Shown piece by piece: positions 3,827 through 36,441 of a stretch of DNA of 64,000 nt. Made by a program: the position numbers and the translations under genes. Position 1 is the stretch's first letter; every line of letters starts with the position of its first letter. Source of the stretch: Candidatus Levyibacteriota bacterium (lineage in GTDB: Bacteria > Patescibacteriota > Microgenomatia > Levybacterales > UBA12049); NCBI GenBank assembly GCA_016182235.1, contig JACOXT010000005.1, forward strand, positions 677 to 64,676, in the 5' to 3' direction. The notes under the pieces were generated by a model. It saw only the letters and a list, made by a program, of their open reading frames with translations, had not been told where the DNA came from and ran no database searches.

Positions 3827-3858
3827 CAACCATAAAGCAATCTGATATTATAACAATA

Positions 3859-4006: not shown

Positions 4007-6895
4007 GTGAATTATATGAGCAGGGAAACTTTAGATATAAATACAAATAATTCAAACTCTGAGAACCCATTTTCTAATGAAGTTGGGAAACGTCAAAGAC
4101 TTATTGCTTCTGTGCAAAAGTTAGGTGACTTGAGAGAGTACACAGAAAGTAGCGCAAATGCCATAGGATCTTTAGAAGCTGAGGAGACGATAATAGCCAA
4201 CGCTCCATCTCTGGGACTTATTATTAATGGATCCCTTAAAGCTGCTAAAGGTGGCAGAATTAATGGAAACTCGGGTTTAGAGTCTCGTGTTGCCTCATTA
4301 CCACCTACGCAAGTAGATCAGGCTCAAGCACAAATTGATCTGCTGCTAAATACCATATCAGTTATCGGTAGTCTTGCTTCCGCCAGACGACTAGAACCAT
4401 ACTTGCCAGTTGTACTCCCTAGAACTCAAGCAGGATTTAAAACTTTAAGGCAGATCGCTGAGCAGTATGCTGAAACAATACCTCTTCCGGATAATGGATC
4501 AGGGGATATTCCTACGGCATTAAGGGTGTTAATGAATCTCGATGAGCAGTTAAGGATTGAAGGTTTAAAAGATCCAATTGTCGTTGAGGCTTTAAGTGTT
4601 TCTGCGAGACAACTAGCACAGGTGAGGTTGGAAAAGTCAAAAATAGATGGATCTGAACAAGTTTCTAAAATTAGGGCAGAACTAGCTCAACAGAGAATTT
4701 ATGCTTTGAAAAGAGAACCCGTTGAAGTACCTGGCACTCGTGGATTTTCAAGATATGAAGTTTTAGCGAATCAAATTATTGAAAGAGAGGGTTTATTTGC
4801 TCAAACTGACTCTGCTAGAGCCGAAGCAGAAGCCAGACTCAAAAGAGAGCAAGAAACAGTTTTAAATGTTATTGCTAAGAAGAGAGCAATTGGAACTGTA
4901 ATATCTTTAATTGATCAAGATCCTCTTTTATGCCAAGTATTAGCTCAAAGATCACGCCTTAATCCTGATGATTTATTAACAGCTGATCTGGGTAAAAAGA
5001 GACTGATTGCCAACAATGCTCTAAACGCTAAAAAGATTATTCTGTCCGTTGAAGATCGAAGGATGTTTAATGGACAGACTGTGATCGCAGAGGAAAGAGC
5101 AAAATTGACACAAGCCTTACTCGATCCATTATCTTTTATCGCTAGACTTACTGATGATGAATTATTAGTTATTCGGACGGGAATCTCTAAGATTTCAGAT
5201 GAGCGTTCGATATACGAATTAGCCGGTGAAAGGCTAAAAAAACAATTAGAGGATGAGGTTACAGATAGTGAGATAATTTCTGCTCTCACAGGAATACTTT
5301 CAGAACAAATACTCGTTGCCAGAGCCCCAGATGCTGTAAATGCTGCAATAGCAGAGTTGGGTATTGATGGAAGTTCGGTACTGAAAGATCCTAGCAAGCT
5401 TGATCAGTTGAAGGATGAAATAATTGCTCGTGGATTAGAATTAGTGGTTTCCGCTTCACAGGAAGAAACAAATGTAGGAAGAGCGCTTACCATAACAGAT
5501 TCCGAGAGGAGAAGGCAAAGAGAAGTCTCTCTAGCTTTAATGAGGGCACGAGAGTCAAATAGTAGAGCCTCAGATACAGAAGCTAGGTTACTTTTGGATC
5601 AAAGTATTGAAGAACCTGGCACTGATAGTTTAGGTGTTATAAAGCTAAGAGAGGATATTAAATCTACTTTAGGTCCATTCCAAACTTATCCAGAATATAA
5701 AACTACATATCCACGAGTAGTTACTCAGGCTTTAGAAAATTTGTATGGGGAATATAATCAGGCTTTTCGTCGTTTGGTCGCTGCCAATAAAGAATTCGAT
5801 ACAGAGTATCAATATTGTCTTTCACCCGATGGAACGCCTATAAACAGCTTCGTTCAAATTGATATGGTTGGATTACCAGCTGGGTTTTTGGAGCAAGCAG
5901 AAACTTTAAGAGAAGAGGATGTTAGGGAAGCTTTAAGAGGCCGAATCTTTGAAATAGAAAATTCTATAGCAATGTATTCGCTTTTAGAATACTTCTTTTC
6001 AGATGGAACACAAGATACTCTTTTTAAGAGGCAATTCCGCGGCGGTTTAGACGACATTAGACAAAAATATGGGCGACCAATCGCCCTATTGGCTGCTACT
6101 GATCAAAAATATCAGGCAATGAGAGAGACTGAATTCGGCAAAAGAGATGGTGAGCCATTAACCGATGACGAGGTGAGTGAGTATTCAGGATTTGATAAGT
6201 TCTTTTCTCCTGAGGAGTTCAAAAAATATTTAGAGGAAAATGGTGGGGAGTCTAGCTATCTTCTATATGTGCGCTCTTCCGATCCTGTAGCGAAGATGAA
6301 AAGGCCAGATTTGGTAATTGATGAGGAGCTTTTAGCAGATGAAAACTTAAGAAGAATAATTAAAGCAAATGCGCTTACTTTTAACATTGATAATCCTAAC
6401 TTGCCAATCGGAGATAGTAGACGCATAAATGATACCAAGGAATATCTTGGTGCAATGGGCATGGCTTTTCCAGTTTTTTATGGAGAGGATCTTACTTCTC
6501 CTGAGTTTAACTCCTATTTGAGATCGCAAGGTGTAGATCCAACACAAGTGGAATCCGGAGAGAGACTTTTGCGTGCTAAACCTATGAAAGGAACTTATGG
6601 AGGATATGGTCATTTTCGAGGAACCCCAGGAGATGCAAGGTTTAGACGGGAATTAAGAGACGCTTTGTTAAAAAGAGGCTCGTACGTTGTCCAGCCTGAG
6701 TTACAAAATCCTACGATAACAAACCAAGACGATGGACGCTCTTATATGTATATCGATAGAGTCTTTTTCTCCAATGATGGTCAAAATTATCGATTTATGG
6801 GTGGCGAAAGAACACTAATGCCTATTGATTCTATTGAGGCTCAAAATAATAGGGTTCATGGAAATAGTTCCTCAGTTTATGCTGAAATAATATAG
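4007..6895 (+). CDS. large hypothetical protein (962 aa) with C-terminal ATP-grasp-like domain
   Basis: GTG 4007 or ATG 4016; long helical N-terminal two thirds unassigned; C-terminus has LRAKPMKGTYGGYGHFRG, GSYVVQPELQ, YIDRVFF..YRFMGGERTLMP..NNRVHGNSSSVYAEI, resembling ATP-grasp (glutathionylspermidine-synthase/circularly-permuted type) motifs; looks G+C-richer than its neighbours. Confidence 0.6.
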   Translation: MNYMSRETLDINTNNSNSENPFSNEVGKRQRLIASVQKLGDLREYTESSANAIGSLEAEETIIANAPSLGLIINGSLKAAKGGRINGNSGLESRVASLPPTQVDQAQAQIDLLLNTISVIGSLASARRLEPYLPVVLPRTQAGFKTLRQIAEQYAETIPLPDNGSGDIPTALRVLMNLDEQLRIEGLKDPIVVEALSVSARQLAQVRLEKSKIDGSEQVSKIRAELAQQRIYALKREPVEVPGTRGFSRYEVLANQIIEREGLFAQTDSARAEAEARLKREQETVLNVIAKKRAIGTVISLIDQDPLLCQVLAQRSRLNPDDLLTADLGKKRLIANNALNAKKIILSVEDRRMFNGQTVIAEERAKLTQALLDPLSFIARLTDDELLVIRTGISKISDERSIYELAGERLKKQLEDEVTDSEIISALTGILSEQILVARAPDAVNAAIAELGIDGSSVLKDPSKLDQLKDEIIARGLELVVSASQEETNVGRALTITDSERRRQREVSLALMRARESNSRASDTEARLLLDQSIEEPGTDSLGVIKLREDIKSTLGPFQTYPEYKTTYPRVVTQALENLYGEYNQAFRRLVAANKEFDTEYQYCLSPDGTPINSFVQIDMVGLPAGFLEQAETLREEDVREALRGRIFEIENSIAMYSLLEYFFSDGTQDTLFKRQFRGGLDDIRQKYGRPIALLAATDQKYQAMRETEFGKRDGEPLTDDEVSEYSGFDKFFSPEEFKKYLEENGGESSYLLYVRSSDPVAKMKRPDLVIDEELLADENLRRIIKANALTFNIDNPNLPIGDSRRINDTKEYLGAMGMAFPVFYGEDLTSPEFNSYLRSQGVDPTQVESGERLLRAKPMKGTYGGYGHFRGTPGDARFRRELRDALLKRGSYVVQPELQNPTITNQDDGRSYMYIDRVFFSNDGQNYRFMGGERTLMPIDSIEAQNNRVHGNSSSVYAEII

Positions 6896-6904
6896 AATTA
6901 ACAT

Positions 6905-7978
6905 ATGTTAAATAAAATTGTAAATTTAACCAAAGAGTTTGTTTCCGTTAAATCAAACTCAGATAATCCAGCTGAATTAGATAAGATATTAGAAATTGCC
7001 TTGTCGAACCTGAAGGAATTTACGATTGAGCGATTTACGAACAAAGGTGTTAAAAGCGCCTTAGTTTACAATTCCAAAAAAAGACCCTCAAAATTTAGGA
7101 TTATCCTAAATGGACATTTAGATGTGATTCCAGGAAAAGATTATCAGTATTCGCCGAAGATTAAGAACGACAAACTTTATGGTGTCGGTTCGATGGATAT
7201 GAAAGCCAGCGTGGCTTGTCTTATCATGGTTTTTAAGGAAGTGGCAGAAAAGGTTGATTATCATCTTGCTTTACAGCTAGTTACTGACGAGGAAATTGGA
7301 GGATTTAACGGCACAAAATTTCAGATAGAAAAAGGTGTAAAAGCTGATTTTGTGATTGCCGGTGAGAGCACTGGCTTACAGATTGCAAATAGGGCGAAAG
7401 GGATTTTACAAGTAAAGATTTCTACCAAAGGTAAAACTGCTCATGGAGCCTACCCGTGGAAAGGAAAGAATGCCATTTGGAAAATGAACCAATTTCTCAA
7501 CTCACTATTAAAAAAGTATCCAATTCCTTCTCGTCAAGAATGGGTAACAACGGTTAATTTGAGTAGGATCAAAACAACAAATACGTCTTTGAATAAGATT
7601 CCAGATGACTGTGAAATCTTGCTCGACATTCGATATGTTCCAGAGGAAGCAGATACTATTGTTAATGACATAAAAGAATTTCTACCCAAAGGCTTTAAGA
7701 TGGATATCTTTGAAAAAGAACCATCTCTGTTTGTCGATGACAAAAACCAATACTTAAAAATGCTCCAGAGCGTAGTCAAGCAAACTACTAAGAAGAAAGT
7801 ACGATTTTATGGTGCGCAGGGATCTTCCGATGCAAGACATTTTACGCGGGTATGTATTGATGGAATTGAATTTGGACCAATAGGTGGAGGTATTGGAACC
7901 GACAACGAATGGGTAAGTATAGAAAGTATAAAAACATATTACGACATATTAAAAACTTTTTTGCTAAAGTTAAAATAG
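6905..7978 (+). CDS. M20 family metallohydrolase (ArgE/DapE/ACY1-like deacylase/peptidase)
   Basis: LNGHLDVIPG, GVGSMDMKAS, LVTDEEIGG, AGESTG, TAHGAYPWKG metal-binding and catalytic motifs. Confidence 0.85.
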   Translation: MLNKIVNLTKEFVSVKSNSDNPAELDKILEIALSNLKEFTIERFTNKGVKSALVYNSKKRPSKFRIILNGHLDVIPGKDYQYSPKIKNDKLYGVGSMDMKASVACLIMVFKEVAEKVDYHLALQLVTDEEIGGFNGTKFQIEKGVKADFVIAGESTGLQIANRAKGILQVKISTKGKTAHGAYPWKGKNAIWKMNQFLNSLLKKYPIPSRQEWVTTVNLSRIKTTNTSLNKIPDDCEILLDIRYVPEEADTIVNDIKEFLPKGFKMDIFEKEPSLFVDDKNQYLKMLQSVVKQTTKKKVRFYGAQGSSDARHFTRVCIDGIEFGPIGGGIGTDNEWVSIESIKTYYDILKTFLLKLK

Positions 7979-8011
7979 TGCAATAACTAAAAGTATGATA
8001 ATCTTATATTT

Positions 8012-9049
8012 ATGGAAGAAAGCCTGATGCAGATCAAAAACTCTGCTGTTTCAATGATAATTGAGGCAGAGGATCAGAAAGAACTTGAGGAAATCAAGCT
8101 CCAATTCTTGGGAAGAAGCGGAAAATTAACTCTCGCAATGAAGGGAATTACCAAACTTCCCACAGGAGATAGAAGAGAGGTTGGTCAGCTTGCAAACGAG
8201 GTCAAAAGAGTTCTTGAAGAATCTATCAACGAACGAAGCAATTCGCTTAAGACTCAAGAGTCAAAAAAAAGGCGCGAAAAAATTGACATAACCAATCCAG
8301 GAGTAAGACCTGACATTGGCCATATTCACCCAATGTCTCAAGTTCTTTACGAAGTAGTTGATGTATTTAAGGGAATTGGGTTTCAGGCGGCTGACGGACC
8401 AGAAATAGAAACCGATCATTACAATTTCGAGATGTTAAATATACCTTCTGACCATCCAGCAAGAGATACACAACAAACACTTTATCTTGATACAAGGCAG
8501 AGCAAAGTCACGCCAGGGGAAATAATTCTACGAACGCAAACTTCAAGTATGCAGGGAAGAATCATGGAAAAAGTAAAACCTCCTATAAGAATAGTTGTTC
8601 CAGGGAAAAATTTTCGATACGAGCAGGTTGATGCGTCTCATGGATTTGAATTTTGGCAGGTTGAAGGATTTGTGGTTGACTCAAATGTAAGACTAACTGA
8701 CCTATTCGGGACAATTGAATATGTGCTCAAAAAATTAATGGGGGAGAAAACTAAAATAAAATTTGCTACGACTAATTTCCCATTCGTTGAGCCCGGAGTT
8801 GATACATATATTTCATGTACTGTTTGTAACGGACGCGGATGCAGTTTTTGTAAATATAGCACTTGGAGTGAAATTATGCCTGCCGGAATGATCCATCCAA
8901 ATGTCCTTAAGGCAGTTGGATATGATCATCAAAAAGTGGCAGGCTTTGCCTTCGCAATCGGGCTTTCAAGACTGGTAACGCTAAGGTATCAAATGGATGA
9001 TTTAAGACTATTGACAAATCCAGATCTAAGAATTTTGGAACAATTTTAA
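8012..9049 (+). CDS. pheS: phenylalanyl-tRNA synthetase alpha subunit
   Basis: HPMSQV, SDHPARDTQQTLYL, LRTQTSSMQ, FRYEQVDASHGFEFWQVEG, GFAFAIGLSRL. Confidence 0.95.
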   Translation: MEESLMQIKNSAVSMIIEAEDQKELEEIKLQFLGRSGKLTLAMKGITKLPTGDRREVGQLANEVKRVLEESINERSNSLKTQESKKRREKIDITNPGVRPDIGHIHPMSQVLYEVVDVFKGIGFQAADGPEIETDHYNFEMLNIPSDHPARDTQQTLYLDTRQSKVTPGEIILRTQTSSMQGRIMEKVKPPIRIVVPGKNFRYEQVDASHGFEFWQVEGFVVDSNVRLTDLFGTIEYVLKKLMGEKTKIKFATTNFPFVEPGVDTYISCTVCNGRGCSFCKYSTWSEIMPAGMIHPNVLKAVGYDHQKVAGFAFAIGLSRLVTLRYQMDDLRLLTNPDLRILEQF

Positions 9050-11400: not shown

Positions 11401-13782
11401 TTACGGAGCTAGAGTAGGAGTCGGTGTTGGGGTAGGAGTCAACGTAACCTCTGGCGTAGGTGTCGGAGTAGGGGTATCGGAAACGACTCGGGTAGATTGT
11501 TCTGTCGGCGGATGGTATAAAGGATCGTCTTTGTGATTTTCATTCACCCACTCATTAATTCCTTCCTGCCAGCGATTTTTCCCGTCCCCAGATATCGGGT
11601 CATTCTCGGAAAATACGACAAACTTGCGAGCTTCATATTCATTTTTGTCAATCTCGCTTTGACTGGCAAGCTTATTGGTATCTTCTTTTGAAACCTTAAC
11701 GTCTTTGTATATCGGGCTTAGTCCCTGAGGCTCTGTACCTTTTATAAAATATTCTGTTCTTGTAGGTCGCCCATCAACCGGCAATCCCCCTCCCAAAGCA
11801 TCAACAGTTACGGCAATTACATTTTCTGGTTGTTCAAAATCTTCTGCCGGTTTTCCTGACAAAGCTTCTATAATTATTCTACGCCAAATTGGAGCGGCCC
11901 CTGTAACTCCTGACGCCACATTTCCCATCGGGCTATTGTCATTATTTCCAACCCAGGTCGCGACCAGTATATTTGGCGTCCAGCCAATTGTCCAATTATC
12001 TCTTTTGTCATCCGTTGTTCCAGTTTTTACCGAAATCGGCCGGCCTCCAATATTTAAATAGCTATTTGGCCCAAATGTCAGAAGTCTTGCATTATTATCC
12101 AAAAGTATATGGGAAATTATAAAAGCTACTTCGCTACTTAATACTCTTCTTTTTGTAGTATCTTTCTTTTCAAATAAAATCTTTCCTTTTGGGTCAGTGA
12201 CCTTGAGGATTGCTATCGGATCACTTCTATATCCTCCATTCGCAAATGCCGTATAGGCCGAAGCAAGTTCCAAGGGCCTTACATCTCCACCTCCTAAGGT
12301 CAGAGACAAACCAAAACGATTTACATTATCATCTGTTGGAGCAAATGTAGAAATGCCCATATCATAAGAGGTGGCCAGCATATTTTTAACTCCAATTAAA
12401 GCCAGGAGTTTCACAGCAGGAACATTAATTGATGAGCCAAGAGCAAATCGAAGTTGCAATGGCCCCCGGAATTTATCATCATAGTTTTTAGGAATATAAT
12501 CCTCGTCTGTGGGATTTGGAAAAACAGTTCTGGTATCCATTATGAGAGTCGAAGCCGTATGCCCGCGATTGAGTGCTGTGGCATAAGCAACAGGTTTTAT
12601 TGAAGAGCCCGGCTGACGAAGACCCTGGGTGATTACGTTAAACTGTCCTTCAAATTCAGTGTTGTCTTTTAGATCCCCCGACCCTGTCGCAAAGAAATCG
12701 CGACTGCCAACCATCGTCAAAATTTCACCGCTTTTCGGATCCAAAACTACGCTTGCCCCATTTCCTACCTTTAAATTTCTTGCCTTTTCAACTTCTTCCA
12801 GAACAATTGCTTCAGCTTTTTCCTGCAGCCTATAATCAAGAGTTGTAGTAACTTGTAAACCTCCTTGCTCAACAAAATTCTCCCCAAACTGCTCAATCAA
12901 CAAATCTTTTACATAAAAAGAAAAATGAGGAGCTTTTATTGACTGATCCTTCACAATAAATACAACATCGGAAAGAGCCGAAACTGCATCTTTTTCCTGT
13001 TTTTTTGTTATATATTTATCTTCGTGCATGCGACGTAATACTTCCGTAGTTCGCGTGATATATGATTTTGGGTTTTGGCCAAAAGGAGAGTAATACGAGG
13101 GGCGCTGTGGAAGCCCGGCAAGAATCGCTGACTCAACTAAATTTAGGTCCTTTGCTTTCTTTCCGAAGTACCTTTCAGAACCCGCTTCAACTCCCACAGC
13201 TGTGCCTCCATAAGGGGTAGCGTTTAAATAAAGCTCTAAAATTTGATCTTTTGAATACTTGCGGTCAACCTGTATCGCTAAAATAAATTCCTTAATCTTT
13301 CTTGGGATTGTTCGCTCGGGAGATAAAAGCGTATTTTTAACAAGCTGTTGAGTTAAGGTTGACGCTCCTGTAATTCGCTGAAACAAAACAGCATCTCTTA
13401 AAGCCCTAAGATATCCCCAAATAGAAAACCCTTGATTTTGATAAAAATCCTTATCTTCGATAGCAATTGTTGCTTGCTGAAGTTGTTTTGGAATTTTGTC
13501 AAGCGTGACATACGTACGATTTTCTTCTTCAAAAATGTCATAAAGAAGTAAACCGTTTCGATCATAAATCCTTGTGGATTGGGGCAGATTGGCTCGCGAA
13601 AGTTTCTCTGGGGTAGGTAAATCACGCCCATACCAAAAGAATAAGACTACGGTTAAAATAAAAATCCCAATAATGCCAAAAAATGCAAATCTGGCAATTT
13701 TGCTGTAAATAAAGATCCGCGAAGAGTATCTAAACCTTATCTGTCTCCTACTTAACCCCCTATTTGTATTATAATAAACCAC
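11401..13782 (-). CDS. class A penicillin-binding protein (glycosyltransferase + transpeptidase)
   Basis: GT51 motifs IAIEDKDFYQNQGF, GASTLTQQLVKN; transpeptidase SSIKP, KTGTTDD; N-terminal TM; C-terminal (TP)n tail. Track ORF reaches 13797 (TTG), but that codon lies inside a TATAAT box; GTG 13782 fits the leaderless pattern. Confidence 0.9.
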   Translation of the reverse strand: MVYYNTNRGLSRRQIRFRYSSRIFIYSKIARFAFFGIIGIFILTVVLFFWYGRDLPTPEKLSRANLPQSTRIYDRNGLLLYDIFEEENRTYVTLDKIPKQLQQATIAIEDKDFYQNQGFSIWGYLRALRDAVLFQRITGASTLTQQLVKNTLLSPERTIPRKIKEFILAIQVDRKYSKDQILELYLNATPYGGTAVGVEAGSERYFGKKAKDLNLVESAILAGLPQRPSYYSPFGQNPKSYITRTTEVLRRMHEDKYITKKQEKDAVSALSDVVFIVKDQSIKAPHFSFYVKDLLIEQFGENFVEQGGLQVTTTLDYRLQEKAEAIVLEEVEKARNLKVGNGASVVLDPKSGEILTMVGSRDFFATGSGDLKDNTEFEGQFNVITQGLRQPGSSIKPVAYATALNRGHTASTLIMDTRTVFPNPTDEDYIPKNYDDKFRGPLQLRFALGSSINVPAVKLLALIGVKNMLATSYDMGISTFAPTDDNVNRFGLSLTLGGGDVRPLELASAYTAFANGGYRSDPIAILKVTDPKGKILFEKKDTTKRRVLSSEVAFIISHILLDNNARLLTFGPNSYLNIGGRPISVKTGTTDDKRDNWTIGWTPNILVATWVGNNDNSPMGNVASGVTGAAPIWRRIIIEALSGKPAEDFEQPENVIAVTVDALGGGLPVDGRPTRTEYFIKGTEPQGLSPIYKDVKVSKEDTNKLASQSEIDKNEYEARKFVVFSENDPISGDGKNRWQEGINEWVNENHKDDPLYHPPTEQSTRVVSDTPTPTPTPEVTLTPTPTPTPTLAP

Positions 13783-13788
13783 AAAGAT

Positions 13789-13794
13789 ATTATA
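13789..13794 (-). promoter_or_regulatory. -10 box TATAAT for the PBP gene, 6 nt before GTG 13782
   Basis: minus strand reads ttgTATAATatctttGTG. Confidence 0.4.
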
Positions 13795-13813: not shown

Positions 13814-13822
13814 TGCTATACT
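13814..13822 (+). promoter_or_regulatory. extended -10 (TGcTATACT) 6 nt before the tyrS ATG
   Basis: tgctatact 13814-13822, ATG 13829. Confidence 0.5.
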
Positions 13823-13828
13823 TTGGCT

Positions 13829-15040
13829 ATGGATAAGATTGGGGAATTATTGACTAGGGGAGTTGAAAAGATTTACCCATCAAAAGAAGAGCTTGAGAAA
13901 GCATTAAGAAGCGGGAGAAAATTAAAACTTTATCAAGGTTTTGATCCCACTGGTATTCAGCTTCATATCGGACACATGGTTGGACTTCGAAAACTAAGGC
14001 AGTGGCAGGATTTAGGACACCATGTTATTTTTTTAATAGGAGATGGGACAGGATTGGCAGGTGATCCCTCGGGAAAAAAACACAAAAGAGAAAAATTTCT
14101 AACTCGAGAGGAACTTCGCAAGAATTCTACTGATTATATAAAGCAAGCAGGAAAAATAGTAAGATTTGAGGAAGTAAATCCGGTTGAGATATTGTTCAAT
14201 GGTGACTGGTTAACCAAACTAATACTTTCTGACATTTTGGAAATTGCGGGACATTTTACACTTCAACAGCTCTCTGAAAGAGATTTGTTTACTGACCGAA
14301 TAAAAAGAGGAGAGGATGTTAATCTCCGCGAATTTTTGTATCCGCTACTTCAGGCATACGATTCAGTGGCGATGGATGTAGATTTAGAAATCGGCGGAAC
14401 GGACCAAACTTTCAATATGCTTTGCGGAAGATCATTAATAAAACAAATGAAGAATAAAGATAAATTTGTTATGACAACTCCACTCTTAACTGACTCAAAA
14501 GGTGTGAAAATCGGCAAAACCGAAGGCAATGTAATTGCCCTAACAGACAAGCCGGAAGATCTTTTTGGTAAAATCATGGCACTTCCTGACGATGTAACAT
14601 TAAAAGGATTTGAGTATTTAACGAGTGTGCCAATGGACGAGGTAAAAAAAATTGAACAAAAAATGGATTCCATGAGTCAAAAGAAACGCTTAGCATTTGA
14701 GATTGTAAAAGAATTAAATTCCGACAATGAAGCTAAAAAGGCACAGATTTATTTTGAAAAAACAGTCCAAGAAAAAGAAAAACCATCGGAAATAAAAGCA
14801 GTTGAGTTGCCCACAAGTTTCACATCATCCGCAACTATAGCAGAGGTTCTCAATGCCATAGGCACAGTAAGTAGTATATCTGAGGGCAAAAGGGTAACGA
14901 TTCAAGGAGGTACATCAATAAACGATCAGAGAATTACAGATCCAAATGAACCAATCTACCCCTTTCTAAAAACAGGAGAAGCTTTAGTTCAAACCGGCAA
15001 ACATAAATTTGTAAAAATCATAACTACTCCTGATTCATAA
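13829..15040 (+). CDS. tyrS: tyrosyl-tRNA synthetase
   Basis: HIGHMVGL (HIGH), KIGKTEG (KMSKS-like), C-terminal S4-like domain; track ORF starts at TTG 13823, ATG 13829 preferred. Confidence 0.93.
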   Translation: MDKIGELLTRGVEKIYPSKEELEKALRSGRKLKLYQGFDPTGIQLHIGHMVGLRKLRQWQDLGHHVIFLIGDGTGLAGDPSGKKHKREKFLTREELRKNSTDYIKQAGKIVRFEEVNPVEILFNGDWLTKLILSDILEIAGHFTLQQLSERDLFTDRIKRGEDVNLREFLYPLLQAYDSVAMDVDLEIGGTDQTFNMLCGRSLIKQMKNKDKFVMTTPLLTDSKGVKIGKTEGNVIALTDKPEDLFGKIMALPDDVTLKGFEYLTSVPMDEVKKIEQKMDSMSQKKRLAFEIVKELNSDNEAKKAQIYFEKTVQEKEKPSEIKAVELPTSFTSSATIAEVLNAIGTVSSISEGKRVTIQGGTSINDQRITDPNEPIYPFLKTGEALVQTGKHKFVKIITTPDS

Positions 15041-16674: not shown

Positions 16675-16683
16675 TGGTAAAAT
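16675..16683 (+). promoter_or_regulatory. extended -10 (TGgTAAAAT) 6 nt before a small ORF
   Basis: tgtggtaaaat is identical to the gyrB element at 39394-39404. Confidence 0.45.
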
Positions 16684-16689
16684 ATTTTT

Positions 16690-16791
16690 ATGGAAATGTT
16701 TAATAAGCATAAGTGGATTTGGAAGATTATTGTAGTTATTTCAACTATTGCGCTTATTGCTACATCTTTTCTTCCATTCTTTAGCCTTTAG
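16690..16791 (+). CDS. small membrane peptide (33 aa), not in the ORF track
   Basis: MEMFNKHKWIWKIIVVISTIALIATSFLPFFSL: one TM helix; preceded by the recurrent leaderless promoter architecture; fills the purH-recG gap. Confidence 0.4.
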   Translation: MEMFNKHKWIWKIIVVISTIALIATSFLPFFSL

Positions 16792-16797: not shown

Positions 16798-18885
16798 ATG
16801 AACCTTCAAACACCTATTCCGAAAGGTGGATCTAACTTTAAGCTCTATGCGCGAAGACTGGAAAGGCTTGGAGTAAAGATTTTTGAAGATTTGCTTTATC
16901 ATATTCCTTCACGTTACGAAGACTACTCTTTAATTTCAAAAATTGGACAAGTGCAGGCCGGAGAAACCGTAACTGTAAGAGGTACGGTTTTGGAGATAAA
17001 AAATGAATACACAAGGGGGTTCAAAAATTTACAAAAAGCAAAGTTATCCGACGACACAGGAGAAATAAATATTGTTTGGTTTAACCAGCCTTATTTAGTA
17101 AGGATTATACACGCAAACGACAATATTTCTATCTCAGGGAAAGTGAACTGGTTTTCCAATAAACTGGTTCTGCAATCTCCTGAATATGAATTAGCTAATG
17201 AATCGTTTTCACTTCATACGGGAAGATTGGTCCCCATATATCCAGAGACTAAAGGAGTATCGTCTAAATGGTTACGCCGCCAAATATACAATGTATTGAA
17301 AGATAGCAGACAAAATTTGACTGAATATCTTCCGGACTCAATTATAAATAATTATGACTTATTAGGAGTAAATGAGGCAATTGAACAAATTCACTTTCCG
17401 AAAACCTTGGAAAATGCCGAAAAAGCGAAAAAAAGACTAGCTTTTGACGAATTTTTTTTAATGCACCTTTCTTCTATACAAAGAAGGTCAACTTGGAGAA
17501 AAACTCTAGTTAGCAATCCTTACTCAATCTCAAATTACAAGAAAGAAATTGAAGATTTTTGGAAAAAACTTCCCTTTACGCTTACAAATGCCCAGAAAAG
17601 GGGAGTGGGTGAGATATTTAAAGACTTGGCAGGAAAAAAACCAATGAACAGGCTTCTGGAAGGGGACGTAGGAAGCGGAAAAACAGTAGTATCTGCAATA
17701 GCGATGTTTCTAAATTTTCTTAATGGTTACCAGTCAGTCTTTATGGCGCCAACTGAAATATTAGCTATTCAACATTATAATACAATATCCAAACTCTTGT
17801 CACCCTTTGGGATTAAAGTCCAGTTATTTACATCTAGTTCAAATTTCAAGAAGAATAAAGATTTAAGATTAAAGATTAAAGAATCAGATCATAAATCATC
17901 CATCGTTAATCATAAATCTCCTACCAATTTTGGTGTAGCTGTCGGCACACATGCATTATTGTATGAAAAAATTGAATTTGAAAAATTAGGTTTGGTTGTA
18001 ATTGACGAACAGCAACGTTTTGGTGTTGAGCAAAGAGCAATTATAAGACGAAAGGGCAAAAATCCTCACCTTCTTACAATGACCGCAACTCCCATACCAA
18101 GAACTATTGCCTTGACTTTGTATGGAGATTTGGATCTTTCTCTTTTGGATGAGATGCCAAAAGGAAGAAAATATATTAAAACATGGCTTGTTGGAAGAGA
18201 AAAAAGAATATCAGCCTACCGATGGATTGAAAAACAAATAAAAGAAACGAATAGTCAAGTATTTATAATCTGTCCTTTTATAGAGGAATCTGAAACTATG
18301 CAGACAGTTAAAGCCGCAAGTCGAGAATATGAATACTTGAAAAAAGACGTTTTTAAAAAATTTAAGCTTGGACTTCTGCATGGAAAACTTAAAACAAGGG
18401 ATAAAGATAAAGTTCTTCAAGACTTTAGAGATAAAAAGATTGACATCTTGGTTGCAACACCGGTTGTTGAGGTCGGGATTGATATTCCAAACGCCACTAT
18501 TATTGTAATTGAAGCATCAGAGCGTTTCGGACTAGCACAGTTACATCAATTAAGAGGAAGGGTAGGAAGGGGAAACAAACAATCATATTGTCTTTTGTTT
18601 ACTGAAAGTAAAAACCAAGAAACTTTAGAAAGGCTTAAGGCGATGGAAAGATATCACGTTGGAGCAGAACTCGCGGAGCTTGATCTCAAGATGAGAGGAC
18701 CGGGAGAGATTTATGGAACCATGCAGCACGGAAGACGTATGCTTAAAGTCGCCAGCTTTTCAGACTTTGAATTAATCAAAAAAACGAGATTGTGCGCTCA
18801 AAAAATCTTCCCTAGTCTAGATGAATATCCACTCCTGAAAGAAAAACTAAAAACCCTAAACCTAAAACAAGTCTCCCCAGACTAA
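16798..18885 (+). CDS. recG: ATP-dependent DNA helicase RecG
   Basis: wedge/OB N-terminus, LTNAQKR, GDVGSGKT (Walker A), VIDEQQRFG (DEQH), TATPIPRT, QLHQLRGRVGRG. Confidence 0.93.
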   Translation: MNLQTPIPKGGSNFKLYARRLERLGVKIFEDLLYHIPSRYEDYSLISKIGQVQAGETVTVRGTVLEIKNEYTRGFKNLQKAKLSDDTGEINIVWFNQPYLVRIIHANDNISISGKVNWFSNKLVLQSPEYELANESFSLHTGRLVPIYPETKGVSSKWLRRQIYNVLKDSRQNLTEYLPDSIINNYDLLGVNEAIEQIHFPKTLENAEKAKKRLAFDEFFLMHLSSIQRRSTWRKTLVSNPYSISNYKKEIEDFWKKLPFTLTNAQKRGVGEIFKDLAGKKPMNRLLEGDVGSGKTVVSAIAMFLNFLNGYQSVFMAPTEILAIQHYNTISKLLSPFGIKVQLFTSSSNFKKNKDLRLKIKESDHKSSIVNHKSPTNFGVAVGTHALLYEKIEFEKLGLVVIDEQQRFGVEQRAIIRRKGKNPHLLTMTATPIPRTIALTLYGDLDLSLLDEMPKGRKYIKTWLVGREKRISAYRWIEKQIKETNSQVFIICPFIEESETMQTVKAASREYEYLKKDVFKKFKLGLLHGKLKTRDKDKVLQDFRDKKIDILVATPVVEVGIDIPNATIIVIEASERFGLAQLHQLRGRVGRGNKQSYCLLFTESKNQETLERLKAMERYHVGAELAELDLKMRGPGEIYGTMQHGRRMLKVASFSDFELIKKTRLCAQKIFPSLDEYPLLKEKLKTLNLKQVSPD
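17870..17928. repeat. 7-nt period AT-rich array read in frame inside recG
   Basis: gatt/gaat at 17870, 17877, 17884, 17891 then aatc at 17904, 17918, 17925; translated KDLRLKIKESDHKSSIVNHKS. Confidence 0.55.
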
Positions 18886-18903: not shown

Positions 18904-18932
18904 TTGAAAGAATCTTATTAAACTGCTATAAT
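18904..18932 (+). promoter_or_regulatory. sigma70-type promoter TTGAAA-17-TATAAT, 6 nt before the rpmF ATG
   Basis: ttgaaa 18904-18909, 17-nt spacer, tataat 18927-18932, ATG 18939. Confidence 0.6.
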
Positions 18933-18938
18933 TTGTTT

Positions 18939-19160
18939 ATGCCGCAGGAACCAAAAAAAAGACATTCAAGGCAAAGAAAAGGCAAAAGAAGAGCCAGTAT
19001 AAAGCTTAAGAAATTAAGTTTTGTTTTATGTCAGAATTGTAAAAGCGTTATGCTTCCGCATATAGTGTGCAAAAAATGCGGGTTTTATGCCGGGCAAAAA
19101 GTATTAACTATTAATACGACTAAGGTCGTTCGAAAAGAAGGACAAGAAAAAATTGCGTAA
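18939..19160 (+). CDS. rpmF: 50S ribosomal protein L32
   Basis: MPQEPKKRHSRQRKGKRRA..CQNC..PHIVCKKCGFYAG zinc-ribbon pattern. Confidence 0.88.
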   Translation: MPQEPKKRHSRQRKGKRRASIKLKKLSFVLCQNCKSVMLPHIVCKKCGFYAGQKVLTINTTKVVRKEGQEKIA

Positions 19161-19541: not shown

Positions 19542-20201
19542 ATGGAGCTCCCAAAACTAAAAAACACAAAACTTTTTGAAGAAGCGTTCACGCATAAGTC
19601 CTATCTTAACGAGGTAAAACAGAAAATACCCTCAAATGAAAGACTCGAGTTTTTGGGAGATAGCATCTTATCATTTGTAGTATCAAGTTTCTTATTCGAA
19701 AAGTACCCAAACTTCAATGAAGGGACACTCACCAACATTAGGTCTCTTTTGGTTAACACGAAGAGCTTATCTATGTTGGCTCGCGAACTAAATATCGGAA
19801 AACTTCTTAAACTCTCCCGCGGAGAAGAAGAGTCAAAAGGAAGAGAGAACGATGCGATTCTTGAAAATAGTTTCGAGGCTTTTGTTGGAGCATTTTTTCT
19901 AGATCAAGGAATCGAAGCCGTAAGGGATTTTTTAGAAAGAGTACTCCTTAATAAAATAAAAAATTTAATAAAAAGTAAATCTTTTAAGGACCCCAAAAGC
20001 ATATTGCAGGAGGTTGTACAGGCAAAAAAACAAAATTCTCCTATTTATAAGGTACTAGAAGAATCAGGACCTGCTCATTCAAAGACATTTAGAGTAGGTG
20101 TTTATGTTAATGAAATTATGGTCGGGGCGGGAATAGGGAAGTCAAAGCAAATCGCAGAATCGTCTGCTGCTAAAATCGCACTTGAGAGAGGAAGTTTTTA
20201 G
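19542..20201 (+). CDS. rnc: ribonuclease III
   Basis: signature ERLEFLGDSIL, ENSFEAFVGAFFLD, C-terminal dsRBD (DPKSILQE..GPAHSKTF). Confidence 0.93.
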   Translation: MELPKLKNTKLFEEAFTHKSYLNEVKQKIPSNERLEFLGDSILSFVVSSFLFEKYPNFNEGTLTNIRSLLVNTKSLSMLARELNIGKLLKLSRGEEESKGRENDAILENSFEAFVGAFFLDQGIEAVRDFLERVLLNKIKNLIKSKSFKDPKSILQEVVQAKKQNSPIYKVLEESGPAHSKTFRVGVYVNEIMVGAGIGKSKQIAESSAAKIALERGSF

Positions 20202-20210
20202 TGGTACAAT
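20202..20210 (+). promoter_or_regulatory. extended -10 (TGgTACAAT) 6 nt before the rpsP ATG
   Basis: tggtacaat 20202-20210, ATG 20217. Confidence 0.5.
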
Positions 20211-20216
20211 ACCTTC

Positions 20217-20444
20217 ATGTCTGTTGTAATTAGATTATCAAAAATAGGTAGGCGAGGAGAGGCAAGGTTTCGTGTTGTTGTGAGCGAGAAAAGAAGTAGA
20301 CGTGACGGGAAACCTATAGAGATACTTGGCTGGTATGAAAAAAGACAAGATTCACAGAATAAAAATGTAAACATGGAAAGATATAATTATTGGGTATCTA
20401 AAGGCGGCATACCCAGTCAGACAGTTCTAAAGATAGTGAAGTAA
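20217..20444 (+). CDS. rpsP: 30S ribosomal protein S16
   Basis: MSVVIRLSKIGRRGEARFRVVVSEKRSRRDGKPIEILGWY. Confidence 0.93.
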   Translation: MSVVIRLSKIGRRGEARFRVVVSEKRSRRDGKPIEILGWYEKRQDSQNKNVNMERYNYWVSKGGIPSQTVLKIVK

Positions 20445-23697: not shown

Positions 23698-24582
23698 TTA
23701 ATTCGAGGGTACAAATAAACCATATGAAATATATGGCAGGAAAGCTTGTGAAAATCCTTTAAAAACAGAAATCCTACGACTCGCTTCTCCGCTTTCTCCG
23801 GTTGAAGTGATCTGGTAACCTTGAGATGGGAAGGTCGCTCCTCCAACTTCCGCTCCAATAAAAGTACTTTTATAAACAGGAATTGCTCGAACAAATATTC
23901 CTTCTGTAATATTTAAGTTTGTTGTTTCAAATTGAAGAGTCTTTCCTCCAATAGGCGTAGGTGATGTCGATGCCGGACTAAACCCATTTCCCCTATGGGT
24001 ATTACATGGATCAAATACACTTCGTGTTGAAGATACATTGAGAGAAGAAGTTCCACGTATCACTATTACTTCTATAGCAGCTGGCCAATTTGATGGATTT
24101 GAATCATCTGCGCATATCTCACCCGCTACGCCCCAATGCAATGTTAAATCCAAAGTTGCCCCGGGTACAGAAAATTCGATTTCGTCATTAGTGGGATCTT
24201 GATTCGCCAGCCAAATGTCTACTCCCTCGCTTTGCGGAATCAGACTTCCTCCATTTACCAGGAGTAGATTTGCACCTGTGCCAACCTCAACCACATTGGT
24301 ATCGTATCCAGTTAAAGGGGAGAGGCTTCCGCTGCTCAATCCTACTTGAGTATCTTGCAAGGCCCTTTCTATCCCTGCCTCGGCTGCGGCTAGCGCTTTT
24401 TGAGATTCTGCCTCCTCGGTTGAAGTCCTTATGTTTGTGATGCTTCGTCCGGCAATAGACAAACCAATAGTTAATGAAACAATAATTACCAATATAACAA
24501 TCAAAAGAACCTGCCCACTCTCCCAACTTTGAACTTTGCATTTTGAACTTTGAACTGCTTGAAGCATATATTTAGAATACAA
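23698..24582 (-). CDS. PilX-like / minor-pilin-like protein
   Basis: N-terminal SGQVLLIVILVIIVSLTIGLSIAG hydrophobic segment as in PilX_N; located between the pilin genes and pilM; N-terminus encoded by a heptad array. Confidence 0.5.
   Translation of the reverse strand: MYSKYMLQAVQSSKCKVQSWESGQVLLIVILVIIVSLTIGLSIAGRSITNIRTSTEEAESQKALAAAEAGIERALQDTQVGLSSGSLSPLTGYDTNVVEVGTGANLLLVNGGSLIPQSEGVDIWLANQDPTNDEIEFSVPGATLDLTLHWGVAGEICADDSNPSNWPAAIEVIVIRGTSSLNVSSTRSVFDPCNTHRGNGFSPASTSPTPIGGKTLQFETTNLNITEGIFVRAIPVYKSTFIGAEVGGATFPSQGYQITSTGESGEASRRISVFKGFSQAFLPYISYGLFVPSN
24525..24557. repeat. 7-nt period array (aactttg-like x5) at the 5' end of the PilX-like ORF
   Basis: aac at 24525, 24532, 24546, 24553 (variant unit at 24539). 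Confidence 0.6.
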
Positions 24583-24609
24583 GTCTTTCTATGCTTTGTC
24601 AACAGTATT

Positions 24610-28149: not shown

Positions 28150-28187
28150 CATACTTAGAATACCATATTTCCTTACGAGTGATTTGA

Positions 28188-28200
28188 CAAGGTCCGACCT
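28188..28200. repeat. REP palindrome aaggtcCgacctt (copy 1, immediately upstream of the RAYT start)
   Basis: perfect 6+1+6 palindrome. Confidence 0.8.
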
Positions 28201-28871
28201 TGCTCTGTAATATATATCCTATGCCTGCCATAAATTCTGTCAAAATTTACGTTGAAAATGGCTATTATCACATTTACAATCGGGGAATTGATAAACGAGA
28301 AATTTTTATAGACCACAAGGATTATATGGTTTTGCTTAGTCTTTTGAAGCGATATCTTGTGCCTTGGGAAAATAGCAAGGTCCGACCTCGTTATAGGATA
28401 GATCTTCATGAAAAAATTCAGCTAATCTCATATTGTCTCATGCCCAACCATTTTCATCTTATGATGAAACAATTCACGAAAGACGCGATTACAGAATTTA
28501 TGCGAGCTTTAACCAATAGCTACGTACTATACTTTAACTCACGGTATGAACGAATTGGACCTCTTTTTCAAGGAAGATATAAGGCCGTTCTTATCGAAAA
28601 GGAGTCATACTTTCTTCATCTTACTCGCTATATTCACACAAATCCGCTGGATCTTGGCTTTACAAGGTCGGACCTTGCAAAGTATAGGTATTCGAGTTAC
28701 GGGGAATTTATTGGAGAAAGAAAGACAGAATGGATTCACTTTGGGGAAATATTAGATTATTTTAAAAGCAAACAAAAAATGAGCGAGCAAGATATACTTT
28801 CGTATCAAAGTTTCGTAGAAGACTCGATAGGGGATTCAAAAGAAATTCTTGAAACACTAAGTATTGATTGA
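28200..28871 (+). CDS. REP-associated tyrosine transposase (RAYT; IS200/IS605 TnpA-like Y1 HUH transposase)
   Basis: YHIYNRG, LMPNHFHLMM (HUH), LFQGRYK, LTRYIHTNPL (catalytic Tyr region), YRYSSYGEF; single gene, no tnpB partner; flanked by REPs. Confidence 0.85.
   Translation: MLCNIYPMPAINSVKIYVENGYYHIYNRGIDKREIFIDHKDYMVLLSLLKRYLVPWENSKVRPRYRIDLHEKIQLISYCLMPNHFHLMMKQFTKDAITEFMRALTNSYVLYFNSRYERIGPLFQGRYKAVLIEKESYFLHLTRYIHTNPLDLGFTRSDLAKYRYSSYGEFIGERKTEWIHFGEILDYFKSKQKMSEQDILSYQSFVEDSIGDSKEILETLSID
28377..28389. repeat. REP copy 2 (aaggtccgacctc, one mismatch) inside the RAYT ORF
   Basis: encodes ..SKVRPRY.. Confidence 0.7.
28663..28677. repeat. REP copy 3 (caaggtcGgaccttg) inside the RAYT ORF
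   Basis: perfect 15-nt palindrome; encodes ..TRSDLAK.. Confidence 0.8.
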
Positions 28872-33997: not shown

Positions 33998-34014
33998 AAT
34001 AGGTAAAACTCCGA

Positions 34015-34020
34015 TATAAT
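34015..34020 (+). promoter_or_regulatory. -10 box TATAAT 6 nt before the holB ATG
   Basis: tataat 34015-34020, ATG 34027. Confidence 0.45.
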
Positions 34021-34026
34021 GTCAAC

Positions 34027-34686
34027 ATGCAAAGCATTTTATTAATATCGGAAAGTAGAAAAAAAGCCGAAGAATATGTAGCCAAACTTTTGATTCATGA
34101 AAAAATTGATCCTATAGATATCAGTACCAATTCTTTTGAAAAAGCACTTGGAATCGAAGACGTGAGAAATATTCAGAAAAAAATCTTTTTAAAACCTCTT
34201 CGAAGTAAATCTAAAGCTGTTGTCTTCGAAGTCTATGAGGGAATAACTACTGAATCCCAAAACGCACTATTGAAAATCCTTGAAGAGCCGCCAAAAAACA
34301 CTACTATAATAATTGTAGCAAATAAAATCACTCTGTTTCTGCCAACTATTCTCTCTAGATGCAAAATTATTGTGCTTAAGGAAAATAATATCCAACTTTC
34401 TAAAGAAGATGCGTCTCTGTATCTTAATATTTTAAAATCTTTAGAGATTGGCGGGGTAGGGGAAAGACTAAAAATAGCTCAGGATCTCACTAAGAACAGC
34501 GAAAATGTGATTCCCTGGCTTGAAAAAATGACTCTTGTTGTTAGACAAGAATTGATTGAAAATTATAACGATCCCAGATATTTAAACCTCTTAAAACAAT
34601 TCCAAAACACCTTTGAAGTTATTAAAAATACAAATGTCAATAAGAGGATTGCCTTAGAAAATCTTTTTCTTTCTCTGTGGGAATAA
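34027..34686 (+). CDS. holB: DNA polymerase III delta-prime-like subunit (short)
   Basis: ESQNALLKILEEPPKNTTIIIVA, LPTILSRCKII (sensor/SRC motif); lacks a Walker A at the N-terminus as in delta-prime. Confidence 0.7.
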   Translation: MQSILLISESRKKAEEYVAKLLIHEKIDPIDISTNSFEKALGIEDVRNIQKKIFLKPLRSKSKAVVFEVYEGITTESQNALLKILEEPPKNTTIIIVANKITLFLPTILSRCKIIVLKENNIQLSKEDASLYLNILKSLEIGGVGERLKIAQDLTKNSENVIPWLEKMTLVVRQELIENYNDPRYLNLLKQFQNTFEVIKNTNVNKRIALENLFLSLWE

Positions 34687-35071: not shown

Positions 35072-35180
35072 TATACTAAAAAAAGTCCAAGAATATCAAC
35101 ATGCTATAGGATAAAATGTTCATGATTTTTATAGAATATTGCACCTATACCTGCTAAAATATATATGTTGATAACCTATT

Positions 35181-36439: not shown

Positions 36440-36441
36440 TC

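Follow-up and report, generated by a model that had tools for sequence, protein, structure and literature searches.

Across a 64-kb stretch of DNA from Candidatus Levybacteria (hereafter the window, meaning the whole 64,000 nucleotides (nt) analyzed), many genes carry a -10-like promoter box that ends 6-8 nt before the start codon, and we consider it likely that these are sigma-70-type promoters placed so that the mRNAs start at or near the AUG and undergo leaderless translation. The source is a small-genome groundwater bacterium from the Microgenomates, a branch within the Candidate Phyla Radiation (CPR; Patescibacteria), and the window has a G+C content of ~37%, dense gene packing, and very short intergenic regions. 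This reading is carried by what the sequences show, namely a motif that is enriched at a set position, has the character of a promoter, is confined to first genes of transcription units, is specific for ATG, and is conserved among orthologues. By hand count, ~17-19 of ~35 transcription units in the window have this leaderless-type architecture, and about half of the units thus appear to be built in this way, including those of thrS, tyrS, gyrB, rpsP, rpmF, PBP1A, and pilB.

A -10 hexamer spans positions -12 to -7, so that with six bases between the hexamer and the start codon, +1 coincides with the A of the ATG. In the mechanism we propose, sigma-70-type promoters, usually with an extended -10 and often with a TTGACA-like -35 box 17-18 base pairs (bp) upstream, would initiate transcription 7 nt past the hexamer, and with the box ending 6-8 nt (mostly 6) before the ATG this start would fall on the A or within 1-3 nt of it. 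Such mRNAs would lack both a 5' untranslated region (UTR) and a Shine-Dalgarno (SD) sequence, and should be leaderless or have leaders of at most 3 nt. Their translation would presumably follow the leaderless pathway, with direct binding of the 5'-terminal AUG and 70S or IF2-dependent initiation.

Candidate promoters and start codons in the window

A preliminary description of this DNA had listed 11 sites with a -10 box (TGnTAnAAT in most cases) located so that 6-8 nt separate it from the start, and upon re-reading, the motifs and coordinates of all 11 match the sequence. Eight further sites of like architecture, absent from that list, precede the starts at 3859, 6905, 24567 (minus strand), 28221, 33988 (minus strand), 35062 (minus strand), 51734, and 53419 (minus strand). 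The start codon is ATG at 18 of the 19 sites and GTG at one (the PBP gene); TGn is present in 10, and a box with at least five of six matches to TTGACA lies at 17-18 bp in 8. An independent scan of the window with a consensus promoter returned the rpmF, rpsP, pilB, g35062, g24567, 28221, 53419, GH18, and thrS sites among its best hits. Gene identities were assigned via NCBIfam or Pfam (thrS, PBP1A-family, tyrS, rpsP, a short holB-like gene, alpha/beta hydrolase, gyrB, XerD-like recombinase, and GH18). The sites are as follows, with distances given as the nucleotides between elements.

thrS (NCBIfam thrS), 763-802, plus strand: -35 box TTTTCA (763-768), 17 nt, TGcTAAAAT (TGCTAAAAT; 783-791), 8 nt, ATG 800
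27-codon open reading frame (ORF), 3823-3861, plus strand: TTGACA (3823-3828), 17 nt, TGaTATTAT ending at 3851, 7 nt, ATG 3859
M20 peptidase gene, 6893-6907, plus strand: TAGAAT (6893-6898), 6 nt, ATG 6905, located 9 nt past the upstream gene; weak candidate
PBP1A, 13780-13794, minus strand: TATAAT (13794-13789), 6 nt, GTG 13782
tyrS, 13814-13831, plus strand: TGcTATACT (TGCTATACT; 13814-13822), 6 nt, ATG 13829; divergent from the PBP gene with 46 nt between starts
33-amino-acid mini-protein ORF, 16675-16791, plus strand: TGgTAAAAT (TGGTAAAAT; 16675-16683), 6 nt, ATG 16690
rpmF (L32), 18904-18941, plus strand: TTGAAA (18904-18909), 17-nt spacer ending in TG, TATAAT (18927-18932; TGcTATAAT), 6 nt (ttgttt), ATG 18939
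rpsP (S16), 20182-20219, plus strand: TTGAGA (20182-20187, located in the 3'-terminal part of the preceding gene), 17 nt, TGgTACAAT (TGGTACAAT; 20202-20210), 6 nt, ATG 20217
Unannotated 289-amino-acid gene of the pilus cluster (g24567), 24565-24602, minus strand: TTGACA (24602-24597), 17 nt, TATTCT, 6 nt, ATG 24567
IS200-like Y1 transposase gene, 28184-28223, plus strand: TTGACA (28184-28189), 18 nt, TAATAT, 7 nt, ATG 28221
pilB/gspE-type ATPase gene, 33986-34025, minus strand: TTGACA (34025-34020), 18 nt, TATTAT (34001-33996), 7 nt, ATG 33988
holB-like gene, 34015-34029, plus strand: TATAAT (34015-34020), 6 nt, ATG 34027
Unannotated 123-amino-acid gene (g35062), 35060-35099, minus strand: TTGATA (35099-35094), 18 nt, TATAAT (35075-35070), 7 nt, ATG 35062
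alpha/beta hydrolase gene, 36431-36450, plus strand: TGATAGAAT (36431-36439), 8 nt, ATG 36448; doubtful
gyrB, 39376-39414, plus strand: TAGAAA (39376-39381), 17 nt, TGgTAAAAT (TGGTAAAAT; 39396-39404), 7 nt, ATG 39412
Amidohydrolase gene, 51723-51736, plus strand: TAAAAT (51723-51728), 5 nt, ATG 51734; weak candidate
Unannotated 197-amino-acid gene, 53417-53454, minus strand: TTGACA (53454-53449), 17 nt, TGtTAGATT, 6 nt, ATG 53419
xerD-like recombinase gene, 54758-54775, minus strand: TGaTATATT (TGATATATT; 54775-54767), 6 nt, ATG 54760
GH18 gene, 54794-54832, plus strand: TTGACA (54794-54799), 17 nt, CATACT (54817-54822), 7 nt, ATG 54830; divergent from xerD with 69 nt between starts

Positional enrichment in the window and in related genomes

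Enrichment within the window was measured on a set of starts chosen blind to the motif, namely the first ATG in each of 64 ORFs that do not overlap and encode at least 60 amino acids, with 2000 shuffles of the proximal 30 nt as the control. TAnAAT ended 6-8 nt before 7 of the 64 starts compared to 0.94 in the shuffles, none of which reached 7, and the looser TAnnnT was found at the same spacing before 16 starts compared to 7.3 expected (P ~0.0005). The string TANAAT-N6-ATG occurs 12 times in the window, while dinucleotide-preserving shuffles gave 5.5 +/- 2.3 and 1 of 100 reached 12. Taken from the window alone, the enrichment is significant but not overwhelming.

The preliminary description had proposed a genome-wide test of positional enrichment as a check on the pattern. 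This test, run on the window and ~2.1 Mb of related sequence, revealed very strong enrichment. The comparison set was built from loci of related genomes centered on gyrB (80) and metagenomic loci centered on tyrS (80); four non-CPR or Saccharibacteria loci were dropped, leaving ~155 Levybacteria-type contigs. The gyrB relatives, drawn from a species-representative collection, share 72-86% identity and are labeled Candidatus Levybacteria/Levyibacteriota or 'Patescibacteria group'; the assignment of the window to the Microgenomates is based on these labels. A motif-centered count over the first 1.25 Mb found 397 occurrences of TGnTAnAAT, which were followed at spacings of 6, 7, 8, and 9 nt by the ATG of an ORF with a minimum length of 80 amino acids in 34, 15, 16, and 14 cases, respectively, compared to ~2 at other spacings. 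In the same 1.25 Mb there were 163 occurrences of TTGACA-N16-18-TAnnnT, with an ORF-opening ATG at a spacing of 6 nt in 24 and 7 nt in 34. The synteny of the loci was offset by clustering the 1909 called genes into 664 families and sampling one member per family. After this deduplication, TAnAAT was found at 6, 7, 8, and 9 nt before the first ATG in 48.8, 17.0, 15.1, and 13.1 of the 664 families, respectively, compared to ~2.5 at other offsets. The spike was seen in every bin of tyrS identity (>=62%, 56-62%, and <56%), indicating a lineage-wide property rather than that of a single species.

The identical pipeline applied to Bacillus anthracis pXO1 (100 kb, 34% G+C, 99 genes) found TAnnnT at spacings of 6, 7, and 8 nt in 1, 2, and 2 cases, with no -10 spike, and a strong SD peak, the reverse of the pattern in the window and its relatives. 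This control bears on whether chance or composition could generate the boxes, with AT-rich DNA or stop codons (TAA or TAG) yielding TAnnnT near starts. TAnnnT is indeed common (2890 occurrences in the window), the enrichment of the loose motif within the window is modest, and one site, that of the hydrolase, is in fact made of stop codons. However, the even more AT-rich Bacillus plasmid was flat, and the ATG-specific spike and the co-occurring TG and -35 signals described below also speak against an artefact, which we reject for the set as a whole as having almost no chance of being correct. An in-frame TAA or TAG at -12 was considered as the source of the 'TA' and discarded, given that the out-of-frame spacings of 7-8 nt are enriched as well and the in-frame spacing of 3 nt is not. 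The third base of the hexamer, moreover, is T, which does not make a stop, in 47% of cases.

Promoter character, first-gene restriction, and ATG specificity

For a promoter alignment, one representative was taken from each of 95 families with the motif at a spacing of 6 nt. The aligned sites displayed T in 64% and G in 54% at -15/-14, the consensus TAtAAT, and enrichment of T, T, and G at -35 to -33, which puts the TTG-containing -35 box at a distance of exactly 17 bp from the -10. The motif thus has the TG upstream of the hexamer and the TTGACA-like box 16-18 bp upstream that characterize extended -10 promoters of the sigma-70/sigma-A type, and the recurring box is best read as the -10 of a sigma-70-type promoter, mostly of the extended kind.

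The frequency of the motif depended on gene context. It preceded 61% of genes with a same-strand gap of 16-59 nt, 36% of genes that are divergent or have a gap of at least 60 nt, and 17% of overlapping or abutting internal genes, compared to control-offset backgrounds of 12-16% (15% for the 16-59 nt class and 12% for internal genes). The excess over background in the first-gene classes amounts to ~24-54%. Among families adjoining gyrB, internal genes had the motif in 0-7% of members, while the gyrB family itself had it in 72% and the pilB family in 84%.

These data also bear on whether the box might be an AT-rich, non-SD translation signal on a leadered mRNA, such as a Bacteroidetes-type group B motif or an S1-dependent enhancer, rather than a promoter. 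The AT-rich genome and low SD use would suit such a signal, and a fixed short distance to the start is expected of a ribosome-binding signal as well. Group B motifs, however, precede all genes, including internal ones (PMC6028130), whereas internal genes are essentially unenriched here. In addition, TG at -15/-14 and TTG(ACA) exactly 17 bp upstream would be meaningless to a ribosome, and in some gyrB, rpmF, and holB orthologues the box stays fixed while the distance to the ATG reaches 15-35 nt, which is promoter-like behavior. We therefore regard a translation signal as very improbable.

Start-codon specificity was assessed for nine codons at spacings of 6-9 nt after the -10 box. ATG was found 198 times compared to ~38 expected and GTG 23 times compared to ~14, while TTG, CTG, ATT, ATA, ATC, AAG, and ACG showed no spike. 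Such specificity for ATG is expected if translation needs an AUG at the 5' terminus of the mRNA, and leaderless mRNAs are known to require AUG (rarely GUG) in that position, with other start codons disfavored.

Conservation among orthologues and correction of start codons

The cleanest case of conservation is the pilB/gspE-type ATPase gene, for which TTGACA-17/18-TACTAT-taaagta-ATGCC is present in 41 of 49 orthologues and the N-terminus MP... is conserved. This pattern implies that the true start in the window is ATG 33988 (MPNSD...), not 33997, whose ATG overlaps the -10 box. In 49 of 77 tyrS orthologues, a strong -10 (typically TATGCTATACT) lies at 5-9 nt, with a mode of 6, and the N-terminus MDKIEE is conserved; the divergent PBP1A gene has a strong -10 at 5-9 nt in 26 of 40. 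The start codons of this pair are a median of ~55 nt apart in relatives and 46 nt apart in the window, a gap so short that two promoters fit only with leaders near zero. The window sequence GTG-GTT-TAT of the PBP gene aligns with ATG-GTT-TAC of a relative (locus L146), favoring GTG 13782 over the longer TTG 13797 as its start. For gyrB, a conserved cTgGAAAT ... TTTGnTAAAAT was observed, with the -10 at 5-9 nt in 41-51 of 71-76 orthologues and at 10-20 nt in ~20.

Similar architectures were found for several other genes. In 13-14 of 21 rpsP orthologues, cTTGAG (in the last codons of the upstream gene)-17-TGATACAAT is followed by the ATG after 6-9 nt, and all four close thrS orthologues have an extended -10 located 6-8 nt before ATG-GAY-AAA. 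TTGACA-17-TAnnnT-6-ATG is present in 9 of 17 orthologues of g24567, for which ATG 24567 is favored over the upstream TTG 24582, and in g35062 the upstream ATG 35071 falls inside the -10 box. The motif was found in 10 of 15 members of the IS200-like Y1 transposase family, and xerD-like genes had the -10 at 5-9 nt in 5-11 of 19 orthologues. GH18 had only two orthologue matches in the loci, too few to judge conservation, and no orthologue of the 53419 gene or of the 27-codon ORF at 3859 was found in the fetched loci.

The -10 of the holB-like gene and the -35 of pilB on the opposite strand share base 34020 (TATAATGTCAA), and this back-to-back arrangement is kept in many relatives. The interlocked divergent promoters (33996-34025) suggest that the two genes compete or are co-regulated.

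Leader length was not constant among orthologues. In the holB-like genes, the spacing ranges from 6 to ~36 nt, with a leaderless-type arrangement in 8-13 of 54, and in rpmF this arrangement is restricted to 4-8 of 29 orthologues, those of the window and a handful of near relatives, most of the others having a recognizable promoter 20-35 nt upstream. In a group of distant relatives (loci L138, L120, L117, L150, and L113), the tyrS -10 is directly followed by an SD (AAAGGAGG) and then the ATG, e.g., tggTATAGTaaaAGGAGGaactATG. If transcription there starts 7 nt past the box, the tyrS leader would be ~6-7 nt long with its 5' end inside the SD. Compared across these orthologues, leader length appears to be evolutionarily labile, with zero as the apparent commonest state.

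As the preliminary description had proposed, the start codons given in the ORF track for PBP, tyrS, and rpmF need correction, and the orthologue N-termini, which align to the proposed starts, favor these corrections. Together with pilB, g24567, and g35062, the longest-ORF starts of these genes are off by 2-5 codons. Starts could conversely be misassigned, with transcription indeed beginning at these positions but real translation beginning downstream, and the leader being what appears to be coding sequence. Many of the ORFs do have in-frame alternative starts within 30 codons, and some N-termini are poorly conserved, e.g., the lysine/serine-rich N-terminus of gyrB. However, family profiles align from residues 1-5 for S16 (residue 1), L32 (residue 5 of the ORF at 18939 in the NCBIfam rpmF profile), tyrS, XerD, and gyrB; N-termini are conserved from the ATG onward (MDKIEE in tyrS, MP(D/N) in pilB, MSVVIR in S16, and MPQEPK in L32); and the downstream candidate starts in the window have no SD. 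Misassignment of this kind has, in our estimate, an even smaller chance of being right than the translation signal considered above.

Shine-Dalgarno use and cis-regulatory RNAs

SD cores (GGAG, GAGG, or AGGA) were scored at 3-17 nt from the start and were present in 15% of internal genes and 8-10% of the remainder, compared to 4-6% at a control offset (6% for internal genes), with the enrichment located at 4-11 nt; 85% of internal genes are without an SD core. The preliminary description had placed strong SD sequences only before a few small ORFs. Their rarity is borne out by these counts, but they are not confined to small ORFs, as they also precede the genes at 42138 (GGGGAGGTGAG, 173 amino acids) and 32233 (GGGAG, 355 amino acids). 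Long canonical SDs in the window are AAAGGAGGTGA before 3465, TAGGAGGTGAT before 61514, and GGGGAGGTGAG before 42138. A search of the fetched loci for the 3' end of 16S rRNA (GTCGTAACAAGGTA) gave no match; judging from the SD sequences seen, the anti-SD is probably of the normal kind. In a survey of CPR ribosomes, the anti-SD was missing only in a subgroup of Parcubacteria and bS1 was shortened to 3-4 domains across the CPR (PMC9297842), and the canonical form of the SDs, where present, agrees with that survey.

At gathering thresholds, no Rfam family matched anywhere in the 64-kb window, and thus no riboswitch, T-box, or ribosomal-protein leader was found, even though these 64 kb include thrS, tyrS, pheST, and several ribosomal-protein genes. 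ARAGORN detected no tRNA gene in the window.

Evidence against leaderless initiation and a possible contribution of read-through

Several points weigh against the interpretation that these mRNAs are leaderless. Transcription start is inferred, together with the mode of translation, and is placed by the position of the -10 box alone; where the spacing is 8-9 nt, the leader may be 1-3 nt rather than zero. Neither TG nor a -35 box is present at 6905 or at 51734, which makes each of these sites a weak candidate. The hydrolase motif TGATAGAAT is composed of AAT preceded by TGA-TAG, the tandem stop codons of an upstream gene that terminates at 36433; it is present in 1 of 14 orthologues, and elsewhere the gene overlaps or abuts the upstream gene; this site is probably fortuitous. 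The architecture is also not fixed, as orthologues of rpmF and holB mostly have leaders of 10-35 nt, and for gyrB and tyrS roughly one orthologue in four has a leader of 10-20 nt. A pyrimidine at -1 (the Y-A-T 'start element') was tried as a leaderless marker and dropped, given that its frequency of 73% compares to 65% in other genes, and it adds no support. The claim in the preliminary description that leaderless-type architecture is widespread is upheld by positional enrichment, promoter features, and orthologues, but it is unsupported for the hydrolase, and for rpmF and holB it is limited to the window and its closest relatives.

The remaining point concerns genes that closely follow another on the same strand without a terminator, with gaps of 15 nt for rpsP, 9 nt for 6905, 14 nt for the hydrolase, 40 nt for thrS, and 53 nt for rpmF. 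At such sites, read-through polycistronic (leadered) transcripts probably coexist with leaderless ones. One could go further and propose that the promoters are real but minor, with expression derived mainly from read-through polycistronic leadered mRNA by SD-independent internal initiation or coupling, and leaderless species contributing little. The very short gaps without a terminator-like hairpin are consistent with this proposal, and since 85% of internal genes have no SD core, SD-independent internal initiation must exist. However, read-through is inapplicable to the divergent pairs tyrS/PBP, pilB/holB, and xerD/GH18, which have no upstream same-strand gene. Moreover, the exact spacing of 6-7 nt and the ATG specificity imply selection on the position of the start relative to the promoter, which would be pointless if the transcript were irrelevant. 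We therefore consider it unlikely that leaderless species are minor, while giving this proposal more weight than any of the other alternatives, and favor promoters that place the transcription start at or near the AUG.

A conserved mini-protein upstream of recG

One of the leaderless-type sites precedes an ORF for a 33-amino-acid hydrophobic membrane mini-protein, MEMFNKHKWIWKIIVVISTIALIATSFLPFFSL (16690-16791, plus strand), located just 5' of recG (16798-18885; Pfam). This ORF is below the usual length cut-offs and surfaced only when ORFs were listed down to 20-25 amino acids. The mini-protein has no Pfam match, but tblastn found matches in more than 40 related loci, and many of these orthologues have a -10 box 5-7 nt before the ATG. 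The possibility that the ORF is a mere leader or attenuator of recG was rejected on account of the conservation of the peptide in these loci. Judged by this conservation, the ORF at 16690 is a real gene.

Other features of the window

The thrS gene (800-2026, plus strand) encodes 408 amino acids that align to positions 168-564 of the ThrRS profile, without the N-terminal TGS and editing region. This short form, starting with MDK, is common to close relatives, and more distant relatives in the loci have a longer N-terminus. The ORF upstream of thrS (379-759) has no Pfam match. Downstream, infC (2010-2636, plus strand; IF3 N- and C-terminal domains, Pfam) overlaps the 3' end of thrS by 17 nt if its start is TTG 2010; there is no ATG near the start of the domain, reminiscent of the unusual infC start codons in other bacteria. 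With rplT at 2847, the order thrS-infC-(rpmI)-rplT is retained.

The promoter of the 27-codon ORF adjoins a 41-nt copy (97.6% identical) of the first pheS codons (tATGGAAGAAAGCCTGATGCAGATCAAAAACTCTGC...), with positions 3784-3824 corresponding to 8011-8051 (plus strand). The copy lies 4.2 kb upstream of the real pheS, ends exactly where the consensus TTGACA box starts, and may be the remnant of a rearrangement. The 27-codon ORF (MKINYSTNHFWFHFYPLNGEVVAVLNS), behind its near-consensus promoter at 3823, is followed by a terminator hairpin (3970-3991) that is the best in the window, and the element as a whole (3823-3991) sits just before an unannotated gene of 959 amino acids without a Pfam match. 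This element may encode a small protein or a small RNA, or act as an attenuator.

The Y1 transposase ORF at 28221 (plus strand) and a divergent ORF at 28231 (minus strand, 290 amino acids) would overlap by 11 nt at their 5' ends in a near-palindrome (ATGCCTGCCAT), and the promoter of each would fall inside the opposite gene.

The region from 57143 to 58029 comprises 890 nt without an ORF of at least 45 amino acids, which is unusual in a compact genome. Within it is a 9-codon ORF (MSHNNTFTT; minus strand, start ATG 57441) preceded by AGGAGGG, a strong SD. The regulator gene downstream of this stretch (56333-57142) encodes two OmpR-type winged-helix domains, and its promoter (TTGTAA-17-TGcTATAAT) has 14 nt from the -10 to the ATG and would thus give a leader of ~8 nt. 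Rfam searches of the 57.1-58.1 kb gap in E-value mode gave only chance-level matches.

Implications

Based on these data, we lean, with limited assurance, toward a broader generalization, namely that Levybacteria, and probably a wider part of the Microgenomates/CPR, are a low-GC lineage using genetic code 11 in which initiation is mainly SD-independent, ~half of transcription units are leaderless, and ~10% of genes are SD-paired. In such a lineage, regulation through the 5' UTR, whether by T-boxes, by riboswitches, or by autoregulatory operators, would be all but missing, including for thrS, tyrS, and the genes of ribosomal proteins, and among orthologues leader length would readily switch between 0 and 15-35 nt. 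Housekeeping genes with long regulatory leaders in model bacteria (the thrS operator, the tyrS T-box, and ribosomal-protein autoregulation) would have no 5' UTR here, implying a loss of post-transcriptional control that is consistent with streamlining and with zero Rfam cis-regulatory matches in 64 kb. If true, an SD-independent default would connect a changed mode of initiation with the streamlining of the genome and with the reduced ribosome of the CPR, which has a short bS1 and lacks some proteins.

There are practical consequences as well, chiefly for start-codon annotation. Gene callers that expect an SD would pick wrong starts in CPR genomes, and a promoter-aware start model would mend thousands of CPR annotations. 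The orthologue series with leaders of 0, ~10, and ~25 nt offers material for studying leader gain and loss, and the compact TTGACA-17-TGnTAnAAT-6-ATG cassettes could serve as parts for expression in CPR bacteria or for testing CPR promoters in other hosts.

Comparison with known systems

The closest known counterpart is group C of GeneMarkS-2, in which a Pribnow box lies 6-8 nt before the starts of first operon genes and 25-50% of transcripts are leaderless, predicted or mapped; in the mapped leaderless genes of M. tuberculosis, the Pribnow box is likewise 6-8 nt from the start (PMC6028130). The Levybacteria loci share with this group (Mycobacterium tuberculosis, Streptomyces, Corynebacterium; Deinococcus-Thermus) a TAnnnT box at ~6-8 nt, its confinement to first genes, and its presence in a substantial share of transcription units. 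The spacing mode read from the sequence is the same (6, then 7-8), and the box is found on ~36-61% of the first-gene classes and on none in excess before internal genes. Unlike the loci described here, code-11 members of group C are almost exclusively high-GC (MetaGeneMark-2 preprint), whereas this genome has 37% G+C; mycobacteria have a minimal TAnnnT, whereas full sigma-A/sigma-70 promoters with TG and a TTGACA -35 are present here; and the description of group C has SD-led internal genes, whereas ~15% of internal genes have an SD core here.

Mollicutes (Mycoplasma) fall in group C under genetic code 4, with 30-60% of transcripts predicted to be leaderless (MetaGeneMark-2 preprint). They resemble the present case in low GC, a reduced genome, and reduced ribosome components, the CPR also having smaller ribosomes and a short bS1 (PMC9297842), but belong to another phylum and use another code; the window, with its long uninterrupted ORFs, is consistent with code 11, in which TGA is a stop. 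Archaeal leaderless transcription (group D; Haloferax, Sulfolobus) is similar in that the promoter is sited for a start at the start codon in the majority of units, but the archaeal TATA/BRE lies ~26 nt upstream, whereas the boxes here are a bacterial -10 and -35. With the Bacteroidetes-type group B the loci share little SD pairing and AT-rich upstream regions; the group B motif, however, lies within the leader and before all genes, whereas here it precedes first genes only, with promoter features, and internal genes are unenriched.

A literature search, of incomplete coverage, on leaderless transcription or Shine-Dalgarno use in Patescibacteria/CPR, Saccharibacteria, and Microgenomates/Levybacteria/Parcubacteria found no such description. 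Individual leaderless mRNAs of Escherichia coli and its phages (lambda cI from PRM, Tn1721 tetR) need a 5'-terminal AUG, and this requirement fits the ATG-specific spike observed here; they differ in being rare exceptions in an SD-dominated genome, whereas in the Levybacteria loci the leaderless-type arrangement is the commonest architecture. The architecture is thus already known, as group C, from other phyla, and as far as we have searched the Levybacteria are a newly described lineage for it, adding a low-GC, code-11, non-actinobacterial member to the leaderless-rich bacteria.

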